Assembly (NCBI GenBank): GCA_026987955.1
Contig: JALSME010000013.1
Coordinates: 1 to 50,971, forward strand
DNA from: Sulfurospirillum sp.
GTDB lineage: Bacteria; Campylobacterota; Campylobacteria; Campylobacterales; Sulfurospirillaceae
Direction of reading: 5' to 3'
DNA length: 50,971 nucleotides
Positions 1,632 through 46,215 of this stretch are shown here, piece by piece. Below the pieces are notes generated by a model. That model searched no databases and was not told where the DNA came from. It worked only from the letters and a program-made list of their open reading frames with translations. How positions within the stretch are numbered: position 1 is the stretch's first letter; each line of letters begins with the position of its first letter. Both the position numbers and the translations under genes were made by a program.

Positions 1632-2176
1632 TGATAGATGATAAATATAAAGTTTTTATAGAGCTTATTTTAAAATACAACAAGATTCATAACATTACTG
1701 GTGCAAAAGATAGGGCCTCTGTGATTGAAAATATAGAAGACAGTATATATCCTATCAGTTTTTTAGAAACAAAAAGTATAAAAACTGCCATTGACATCGG
1801 AACGGGAGCAGGTTTTCCTGGTCTTATTTTAGCTATGGAACTTCCTAATACCCAGTTTACACTTTTTGAGCCCATTGCAAAAAAGAGCTCTTTTTTACAC
1901 CTAGTAAAGACAACTTTAGGACTTAAAAATGTAAAAGTTTCAACAAAAAGAGTAGAGCAAGAAGAGGGTTTTGAAGTTGATCTTATAACTTCAAGAGCAG
2001 TAACTAACACAGATATGTTAATAAATTTATGTAAAGAGTACATAACCCCTAAGACAAATCTTCTTTTTTACAAAGGTGAGAGAGTTGTTGAAGAAATTTC
2101 AAACATTAAAAACTATAAAATATATAAAAAAGAGAGAAGAAATTACCTTCTCATAAAGGATATAGATGCTATTTAA
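1631..2176 (+). CDS. rsmG: 16S rRNA m7G527 methyltransferase
   Basis: NKIHNITG, DIGTGAGFPG SAM motif, ITSRAV, YKG. Confidence 0.95.
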   Translation: MIDDKYKVFIELILKYNKIHNITGAKDRASVIENIEDSIYPISFLETKSIKTAIDIGTGAGFPGLILAMELPNTQFTLFEPIAKKSSFLHLVKTTLGLKNVKVSTKRVEQEEGFEVDLITSRAVTNTDMLINLCKEYITPKTNLLFYKGERVVEEISNIKNYKIYKKERRNYLLIKDIDAI

Positions 2177-2396
2177 ATTTTTGTTACTTGTTGGTATATT
2201 TTTTGCGATATATATAATTTTTTTCAAAAGATCAAAAAAAGAGGTGTCTAACGAAAGAAAAAAGAAAAGTAAATCAACTCCAAAAGGTGATATCATGATG
2301 GAGTGTGAAAAGTGTGAAACATTTGTAAGCGAAGATGAAGCTATTATTAAAGATGGTAAATTTTACTGTTCAAAGCAGTGTGCAGGGATTAAATAA
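2166..2396 (+). CDS. PP0621-like small membrane protein with Cys-rich tail
   Basis: N-terminal hydrophobic helix, MMECEKCETFV...FYCSKQC; overlaps rsmG end. Confidence 0.8.
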   Translation: MLFKFLLLVGIFFAIYIIFFKRSKKEVSNERKKKSKSTPKGDIMMECEKCETFVSEDEAIIKDGKFYCSKQCAGIK

Positions 2397-2659
2397 TGAG
2401 ACCACTGCACAGTAAGAACACCCACAATATCAAGAGGTTTTGTATAGACAAGGCAATTGATTGCAGGACTAACTGGTTAGTTCAAGAACAATTAACGAAG
2501 TATATGCGAAACCTCTTGATACCCATAGGGAAGCTTAGTTTTAGGCAATCTTTAAAAGATAAAAGTTTTCGAATTAACAAGTTAGTCCTTCAAATTTTAT
2601 ATTTCAAATCTCACCCAAAACTAAGCTTTTGTGGGTGTACTTACTGTGCGGTGGTCTCA
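2397..2659. mobile_element. 263-bp MITE-like structured element
   Basis: 31-bp terminal inverted repeats (2397-2427 / 2629-2659, 2 mismatches), flanked by TAA on both sides (or ATAAT if the ends are 2398/2658); no transposase. Confidence 0.85.
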
Positions 2660-2661
2660 TA

Positions 2662-3042
2662 ATGATTATTATTGGTCATGAGCTTATACCGTATAGTCCG
2701 CTATATAAAGTTTCATCTAAAGATGAGATACAAAAGACAGTACCCAACTCAACCATTTTTATGAACTTTTCTCATATAAAATTGGCCAAATATGCACTAT
2801 CTCAAGATATCAATATAGCTCTACATGTAGAGGGTATAAAAGAGGCTTGCTTAGCAAATGCTCTTGGTGCCAAATATATTACTGTAGAAGACAATATTGC
2901 AAAAAGCATCCAAGCACTTGCAACTGAGTATCTTTTTGATTCTAAAATACTATTACTCGTGGAAGATGAAAGTGGTATCGAAGTTGCTGCTAAAAGCTAT
3001 ATTGATGGCATCTTACTATCAAAAGCTATAGTAGTAGTTTAA
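2662..3042 (+). CDS. hypothetical protein (probable start MIIIGHELIP)
   Basis: ATG at 2662 overlaps TAA; the longer 2629 start lies inside the inverted repeat. Confidence 0.75.
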   Translation: MIIIGHELIPYSPLYKVSSKDEIQKTVPNSTIFMNFSHIKLAKYALSQDINIALHVEGIKEACLANALGAKYITVEDNIAKSIQALATEYLFDSKILLLVEDESGIEVAAKSYIDGILLSKAIVVV

Positions 3043-3054
3043 GTAACTACTACT
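3030..3054. terminator. hairpin at the overlap of convergent gene ends
   Basis: AGTAGTAGTT-taagt-AACTACTACT 10-bp stem covering both stop codons. Confidence 0.4.
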
Positions 3055-45995: not shown

Positions 45996-46017
45996 ATTTT
46001 CTCCTTTGAAAATTTTA

Positions 46018-46178
46018 GGGCACATCTAAAAACCCTTATGCCCGCAGGGAGTCAAAGAGAGAGACAATCTTGCACAGAATTTTTCATCGCCATAGCTAAG
46101 GCTATGACTCAAAAAAACTTATGCACAATCTTACCTCTCTCTTTTACTCTGAGGATATAAGGGTTTTTAGAGGTGCCC
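46018..46178. mobile_element. 161-bp fold-back MITE-like element
   Basis: 26-bp terminal inverted repeats GGGCAC(A/C)TCTAAAAACCCTTAT..CC, TTTA on both flanks, inner arms also complementary. Confidence 0.8.
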
Positions 46179-46215
46179 TTTATTAAAGCTACTCTACATG
46201 TAGACTTAATAAAGC

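Follow-up and report, generated by a model that had tools for sequence, protein, structure and literature searches.

The 261-bp element at positions 2398-2658 of the window (the whole stretch of DNA analysed here, 50,971 nucleotides) is probably best explained as an IS5-ended MITE with two arms, mirror images of each other, that are predicted to fold on opposite strands; its mobilisation likely depends on an IS5 DDE transposase supplied in trans. The complementarity of the two arm loops, read by the initial annotation as a candidate kissing loop, most likely reflects one tip module occurring twice.

Insertion site and target repeats

The element and its surroundings are composed of the following features.

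2166..2396, plus strand: upstream host gene, PP0621 family protein, 76 aa (NF041023, 71 bits, cut-off 45)
2393..2397, plus strand: left 5-bp target repeat ATAAT; the upstream gene stops within it (2394-2396), and it supplies the AT of the element's start codon ATG
2396..2662, plus strand: 88-codon open frame from one TAATG overlap to the next, candidate translational-coupling bridge
2398..2658, no strand assigned: element proper, non-autonomous MITE of 261 bp, multicopy in the host genome and with homologues in other genomes
2398..2415, plus strand: left terminal inverted repeat, IS5-type, the first 18 bp of P1, 18/18 identical to the ends of 1.5-kb elements
2641..2658, minus strand: right terminal inverted repeat, IS5-type, 17/18 identical to the same IS ends
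2659..2663, plus strand: right 5-bp target repeat ATAAT; the spanning frame stops within it (2660-2662), and it supplies the AT of the downstream gene's ATG (2662-2664)
2662..3042, plus strand: downstream host gene, conserved hypothetical protein, 126 aa, with no Pfam or NCBIfam match

The element sits in a ribA-gidB-type operon between the PP0621-family gene and the conserved hypothetical gene, orthologues of which (50-56% identical) are found in three of five same-genus genomes. The terminal helix P1 had been placed at 2397-2427/2629-2659, and 29 Watson-Crick pairs, one G-U pair and one mismatch account for its 31 positions. The helix stands, but its outermost T/A pair is part of the 5-bp target repeat, and the element proper is thus 2398-2658. 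Both same-genus genomes that cover the locus have an empty site, a plain TAATG stop/start overlap at the same junction; a third same-genus match is truncated where its contig ends.

The host genome contains six full copies with 94-100% identity as well as fragments, and 7 of 40 relatives' genomes have a match to the element. A BLAST search of the element against plasmids gave no match. The central target base varies in two of the six host-genome copies. Among the matches listed, perfect 5-bp flanking repeats were present in 18 of 32 short elements and in 0 of 8 IS copies, one mis-paired long row being left out of this tally. Some of the perfect repeats are non-consensus (e.g. TTAAA), and mismatches fall mostly on the variable middle base. 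Imperfect repeats could stem from collapsed assemblies, in which different copies were joined, or from recombination. Because the site is empty in relatives and some 5-bp repeats depart from the consensus, a target duplication of 5 bp is favoured over one of 2 bp (AT). The element has IS-matching terminal repeats, a target duplication, dispersed copies, an empty orthologous site and no transposase of its own; since matching IS5 ends occur elsewhere and the site is empty in relatives, it is a MITE.

Several other properties of the copies were noted. Three short internally deleted copies in the host genome (G000:C82:11703-11743, C8:5083-5123 and C49:26727-26761) retain the left end, joined directly to the final bases of the right one, and one of them directly adjoins a full copy. 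The orientation of the elements is strongly biased in the host genome (18:3); elsewhere the ratio is 20:13 (p 0.30, not significant), and a general orientation rule was not retained. A terminator role was also rejected, no terminator-like site being present within the element. A bidirectional terminator-like hairpin is located at 3030-3054 of the window, where the ends of the hypothetical gene and of an alanine racemase gene converge.

Terminal repeats and transposase

A metagenome scan by the terminal motif yielded at least 120 loci. Among these, elements of 1478-1544 bp carry the same ends, and each encodes a protein of ~418 aa that is an IS5 transposase (NF033581, 202 bits, cut-off 140; DUF772 and DDE_Tnp_1). 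Beyond the first 18 bp, the interior of the element and the 1.5-kb IS share nothing, and no arm was found in seven IS loci with our arm model R1. Two further end classes of the superfamily described below likewise match IS5 elements. The cognate transposase was not found in the host genome assembly, a draft of 143 contigs; a same-genus genome carries a cognate IS5 transposase gene with 73% identity. Mobilisation in trans by an IS5 DDE transposase is likely.

Between the same IS5 ends, interiors range from 22 to 264 bp in length, a bare palindrome and one-arm forms being among them. The small IS5-ended forms (L283, L284, L274, L395, L256, L261, L273 and L318) comprise a bare 22-bp palindrome, hairpins of 49-59 bp and a 163-bp one-arm rod with tandem GA motifs, which is predicted to fold much more stably on one strand than on the other (-95 vs -71 kcal/mol in L273). 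Two derivatives (L322, 158 bp; L388, 147 bp) are joined exactly at the tip hairpins, the 5' half of P2 to the 3' half of P3, either by tip-tip recombination or as an assembly artefact.

Fold and strand preference of the two arms

The internal organisation of the element is given below.

2398..2427, no strand assigned: P1 5' strand, pairing with 2629-2658; two-sided changes in 14/30 pairs, no strand bias
2428..2521, plus strand: arm 1 (P2), with outer stem, internal loop, inner stem and tip hairpin; predicted plus-strand fold
2450-2454 / 2494-2500, plus strand: conserved internal loop of arm 1, AAGGC / AACG(A/C)AG
2455-2462/2486-2493, plus strand: inner stem of arm 1
2462..2487, plus strand: P2 tip module, the first loop segment of the initial annotation; pairs on paper with 2567-2592, no covariation
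2466-2483, plus strand: tip hairpin of arm 1
2522..2530, no strand assigned: CCC-ATA-GGG mini-hairpin, fourth helix of the junction; 3/3 pairs invariant in 25/25 homologues
2531..2628, minus strand: arm 2 (P3), whose stem bears a tandem GA/AG motif (read on the minus strand) and ends in a tip hairpin; predicted minus-strand fold
2567..2592, minus strand: mirror copy of the tip module in P3, the second loop segment of the initial annotation
2571-2588, minus strand: tip hairpin of arm 2, the same module as the P2 tip in reversed orientation

On each strand the predicted fold is far more stable than expected by chance (z -13.6 on the plus strand and -12.8 on the minus strand). The two inner helices were recovered as proposed: P2 (2428-2446/2503-2521) has 17 Watson-Crick and two U-G pairs of 19, P3 (2531-2545/2614-2628) is paired at 14 of 15 positions, and its extension to 2564/2595 has 27 Watson-Crick pairs, four A-C and three other mismatches of 34. 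These helices do meet in a junction, but it is four-way and not three-way, with a CCC-NNN-GGG mini-hairpin (2522-2530) between P2 and P3. The mini-hairpin is flush, with zero linker bases, as it strictly is in 24 of the 67 related families; in 66 of the 67, one of the two strands of its loop reads purine-N-A. The supposed loops are not open: in each, a further stem leads through an internal loop to a tip hairpin. That the element goes beyond a simple palindrome was borne out by stems and internal loops conserved by structure. Some copies have extra inserts of 25-35 bases nested in the P3 arm (G000:C105 near 1979; L057).

The two arms favour opposite strands. Across the 67 families, wobbles in P2 on the plus strand are G-T rather than A-C (117 vs 30), those in P3 are A-C rather than G-T (126 vs 52), i.e. 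G-T is favoured on the minus strand, and those in P1 are neutral (36 G-T vs 32 A-C). Predicted folding energies agree with this pattern: with RNA parameters, P2 folds better on the plus strand in 64/67 families and P3 on the minus strand in 65/67; with DNA parameters, both numbers are 63/67. Model R1 gives 86 bits to arm 1 (this family is in the R1 training set) and matches arm 2 on the minus strand at 2536-2623 (20.8 bits, E 0.016). An Rfam search, suggested in the initial annotation, matched no family: the element gave only two chance miRNA matches (E above 2), and 20 related loci gave 0 matches at E 0.1.

The arm module and its distribution

The families were derived from 181 distinct motif matches (among the matches listed), of which 147 passed a stem filter, 34 failing, and formed 67 clusters at 80%. 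They bear many different ends on a shared two-arm core; in some of them a P2-type arm is present on both strands, and one-arm forms also occur. In an alignment of 59 arms (A2; 8 of the 67 families left out; 54% mean column identity), 36 of 37 arm pairs covary around a fixed internal loop, (A/G)AGGC / AACG(A/C)AG, and this loop recurs across phyla. C-TN-G and C-NW-A predominate among the tip loops of the folding strand, and the central loop has the form purine-N-A. We take these loops to resemble stable DNA mini-loops and, on their complementary strands, to read as UNCG-like RNA tetraloops, so that the argument from the loops cuts both ways.

In the host genome, the motif scan detected 33 elements with the same layout and several different ends, compared with 0 in the reversed genome, and the arm model had 70 matches. 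Pattern searches found the core in 10/301 genomes of the class and in 14/61 of the family, the host genome being counted, and at least 118 loci with the core in the genome collection. Titled genomes with related elements are mostly Campylobacterota (among the matches listed), and the superfamily includes records of Psychromonas, Patescibacteria and Acidobacteriota. All five such genomes had arm-model matches (1-37 each), their own loci having trained the model in most cases. Six pattern matches in viral contigs yielded 0 confirmed by model R1, and BLAST of a Psychromonas relative against E. coli genomes gave no match.

Some members depart from the common layout. Families of twofold symmetry, in which each strand carries the AAGGC/AACGAAG arm, were found in the host genome and in Patescibacteria (G000:C19:4212-4480, C71:10047-10325, C105:87-345 and C106:1338-1616; also L419, L421, L430 and L434). 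A second superfamily member at 46017-46179 of the window has other, AGGGCAC-type IS5 ends and only the mini-hairpin and P3, without the P2 arm; its remaining arm P3 is more stable on the minus strand than on the plus strand (-86 vs -69 kcal/mol). In an Acidobacteriota genome (L422-L444 of G358), the P3 tip differs among copies, and some tips resemble, by eye, an Ssn-cut NTS/SRM hairpin.

Complementarity between the arm tips

The match between 2462-2487 and 2567-2592 is real, with 21 Watson-Crick and two G-U pairs making 23 of 26 positions. The isolated duplex is predicted at -24.9 kcal/mol, and 18-24 of 26 positions are complementary in all 25 full-length homologues of alignment A1, from which one of 26 copies with a different interior was excluded. 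These values would favour pairing between the P2 and P3 loops as part of an RNA tertiary structure, or of a switch, under selection. The covariation test, however, separated the nested stems from the loop-loop helix. Two-sided changes were observed in 53/102 pairs of the nested stems, a value reached in 0/500 shuffles, and in 3/26 pairs of the loop-loop helix, for which 288/500 shuffles were as high. Substitutions in the P2 tip are compensated within the tip and break cross-pairs (e.g. 2468 A>C with 2481 T>G in 6/25 homologues), and 2464:2590 is unpaired in 24/25. Forcing the loop-loop helix made the fold 10.7 kcal/mol worse than the nested one. Kissing RNAs are hairpins of the same strand with accessible loops; here the strand biases are opposite and the loops are covarying stems. 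A 26-bp helix between two closed loops would also comprise more than two turns and is topologically implausible. The kissing loop, pseudoknot or switch is therefore largely refuted and highly improbable, its cross-helix having no covariation above shuffles and the arms folding best on opposite strands.

The tips were compared in 65 of the 67 families, two having no called tip. Matching tips, with a score of 12 reached, were found in only 20/65 families, and the P2 tip of the window family scored 21 and 21 against the reverse-complemented P3 tips of two other families and 15 against its own. Since the tips are drawn from a shared pool, two mirror-oriented tips look complementary, and the loop-loop match is most likely one tip module seen twice in mirror image and not a kissing helix. 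A weak excess of matching tips was nevertheless seen. The P2 and P3 tips of one and the same family resemble each other more than permuted pairs do (mean 9.3 vs 7.1), and identical tip loops occur in 8/65 families vs 2.7 expected. The 2-nt loops match in 6/12 variant combinations vs 1.8 expected (P 0.001), which runs contrary to the absence of kissing; the 4-nt loops are complementary in 5/17 vs 3.5 expected. The likeness of own tips and the excess of 2-nt matches indicate some homogenisation between arms, kinship being uncontrolled in these comparisons. The excess could come from shared ancestry or occasional inter-arm copying, and weak loop-loop pairing is a conceivable source. Of the options offered by the initial annotation, the third, two putative inverted binding sites on single strands, fits the data best.

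The open frame spanning the element

The ATG of the 88-codon frame at 2396 overlaps the upstream stop, and the end of the frame at 2662 overlaps the next ATG. The frame is open in 17/26 copies in the forward direction and in 0/26 in reverse (shuffle probability 0.001). Both junctions are coupled in 10/17 open copies vs 0/10 broken ones (Fisher p 0.003, the lineages not being independent), and 4/6 host-genome copies lie at gene junctions, vs 5.3% of the tolerable ATNAT sites (195/3691). The product matched nothing in Pfam or NCBIfam, and its amino-acid sequence showed no sign of constraint (32 synonymous changes vs 38 expected), which rules against a functional 88-aa peptide. Stop-creating substitutions numbered 4 vs 6-7 expected, a depletion that is not significant. 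An open frame as a general rule was rejected: 5/67 families have it forward vs 1.1 expected, and it is absent from the other 26 host-genome elements checked. The frame may serve as a bridge for translational coupling, to which we give a little less than even credence.

Comparison with known repeats

The closest known kinds are bcr1, ERIC and IS-derived MITEs; Rickettsia RPE-1 ends, pneumococcal BOX and IS608 hairpins may also bear a resemblance. An E. coli K-12 ERIC copy, L412, has a CAAGGCG / CAACGCAG internal loop in the same register as the arm. It scored 22.9 bits (E 0.005) in an unfiltered search with a model built without L412, and it agrees, by eye, with the published ERIC2 primer at 19/22 positions. 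A filtered search of the whole E. coli chromosome with the arm model gave no match, so the ERIC kinship is weak evidence and a lead. ERIC/IRU elements are 127 bp long with one arm, a longer inner stem and TA-flanked ends, whereas the present element, with its 261 bp, two arms, IS5 ends and 5-bp repeat, does not have the ERIC/IRU layout.

In the accessible part of PMC10969869, MITEs are defined as short, multicopy, intergenic and AT-rich, with terminal repeats identical to those of an IS, a target repeat and a stable fold. All of these features are common to the present element and the IS5-family-derived bacterial MITEs (NF033581; DUF772 and DDE_Tnp_1). Unlike in the latter, the interior is not a deleted IS, and a modular two-arm core occurs under many unrelated ends. 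The element is a structured, modular IS5-ended MITE, and its two-arm interior sets the family apart from known IS-derived MITEs. The bcr1 element of the Bacillus cereus group, as described in the available portion of PMC3184786, resembles it in having 5-bp direct repeats, a cruciform-like fold, two independent stem-loops and compensatory changes. It differs in its length of about 155 bp, and that portion of PMC3184786 does not describe opposite-strand arms, end swapping or a spanning frame for bcr1. The REP/REPIN-RAYT and NTS/SRM-Ssn systems likewise have oriented hairpins on single strands, often as inverted pairs, and in the accessible sections of PMC3733652 and PMC11893778 they are without IS-type ends. 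A 'THI element' of Arcobacter was considered for comparison but turned up neither in searches of the open-access literature nor in the available text of PMC2147049, and was dropped. This element family is not described in the accessible parts of PMC10969869, PMC3184786, PMC3733652, PMC2147049 or PMC11893778.

Alternative explanations

It is unlikely, though arguable, that the arm is a mobile single-stranded DNA module in its own right, REP/REPIN-like or Ssn-target-like, which an HUH or GIY-YIG enzyme copies into the middle of small IS-end palindromes, the IS5 ends being a secondary carrier. The range of interiors between the same ends, from the bare palindrome to one-arm forms, would suit this, as would the assumed likeness of the C-TN-G, C-NW-A and purine-N-A loops to DNA mini-loops; the opposite strands of these loops, however, read UNCG-like. 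The tips start with a G-N-A-G word reminiscent of GTAG REPs (features as given in the accessible part of PMC3733652), and one Acidobacteriota element's tip resembles, by eye, the NTS/SRM hairpin in that of PMC11893778. The host genome nevertheless yielded no RAYT or small GIY-YIG Ssn gene flanked by the arm, nor was a gene-bearing form of the arm seen. Its three RAYT-like Y1 genes (C59:13249-13578, C63:6828-7160 and C50:24694-25020; 255-353 codons) are below the NF047646 cut-off with no arm, tip or REP arrays in their flanks, and its sole GIY-YIG match lies in a 603-codon frame and not in a small Ssn. The C63 gene is flanked on either side by a short inverted repeat.

We consider it improbable that the structure is a neutral by-product, with template switching between the inverted arms giving apparent compensatory changes and occasional tip homogenisation. 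The lack of wobble bias in P1, the tip-joined deletion or fusion derivatives (L322 and L388) and the residual tip similarity would be expected on that account, but copying would erase mismatches, yet the U-G pair 2441:2508 is invariant in 25/25 homologues and the internal loops are fixed. The wobble bias is, moreover, strand-specific and opposite in the two arms, and the internal loop is kept across phyla at 54% mean column identity. An intervening sequence excised from mRNA by RNase III cutting P1 is barely credible: P1 is a near-perfect 30-bp duplex, but the transposase ends already explain it, and RNase III cleaves RNA without religation, so the operon transcript would be split; no observation made in the analysis pointed to excision. 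In favour of such cutting, RNase III cleavage at the terminal repeats of Correia elements is reported in the accessible part of PMC10969869.

Proposed mechanism and implications

In the explanation that we prefer, that of an IS5-ended MITE with mirror arms on opposite strands, the transposase would cut at the terminal repeats and insert the element at AT-rich 5-bp targets (mostly ATNAT), duplicating them. Any strand that becomes single-stranded, whether as a transcript in either direction or as exposed DNA, would then show one well-folded arm near its 5' end, and the fixed purine-rich internal loop of this arm would likely be read by a putative protein. Such reading would account for an arm whose structure persists as families exchange their ends and tips. 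In this family, the ATG from the left target copy would open the 88-codon frame, the stop in the right target copy would overlap the next start, and ribosomes would run through the hairpin and re-initiate, so that insertion at an operon junction would be tolerated. We lean slightly towards this last step acting in the host transcript.

A wider reading, which we put forward tentatively and find rather doubtful as a whole, is that of a cross-phylum strand-specific hairpin module, with ERIC as a one-arm member, that is read by some factor and shuttled among unrelated IS ends; here its carrier would land on TAATG/TGATG overlaps and rebuild coupling through a throw-away 88-codon frame. Neither the arm shared under many ends nor the coupling bridge was found in print in the open-access literature. 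Dozens of MITE families in several phyla share one structured arm, its internal loop fixed, beneath many different transposase ends. If ERIC shares the arm, the question of why ERIC-like repeats conserve their fold would become a search for one binding factor, for which the arm could serve as bait with the opposite strand as a built-in control. The coupling bridge, if true, would allow a selfish element to sit within operons without polarity, in a manner distinct from RNA splicing or in-frame insertion.
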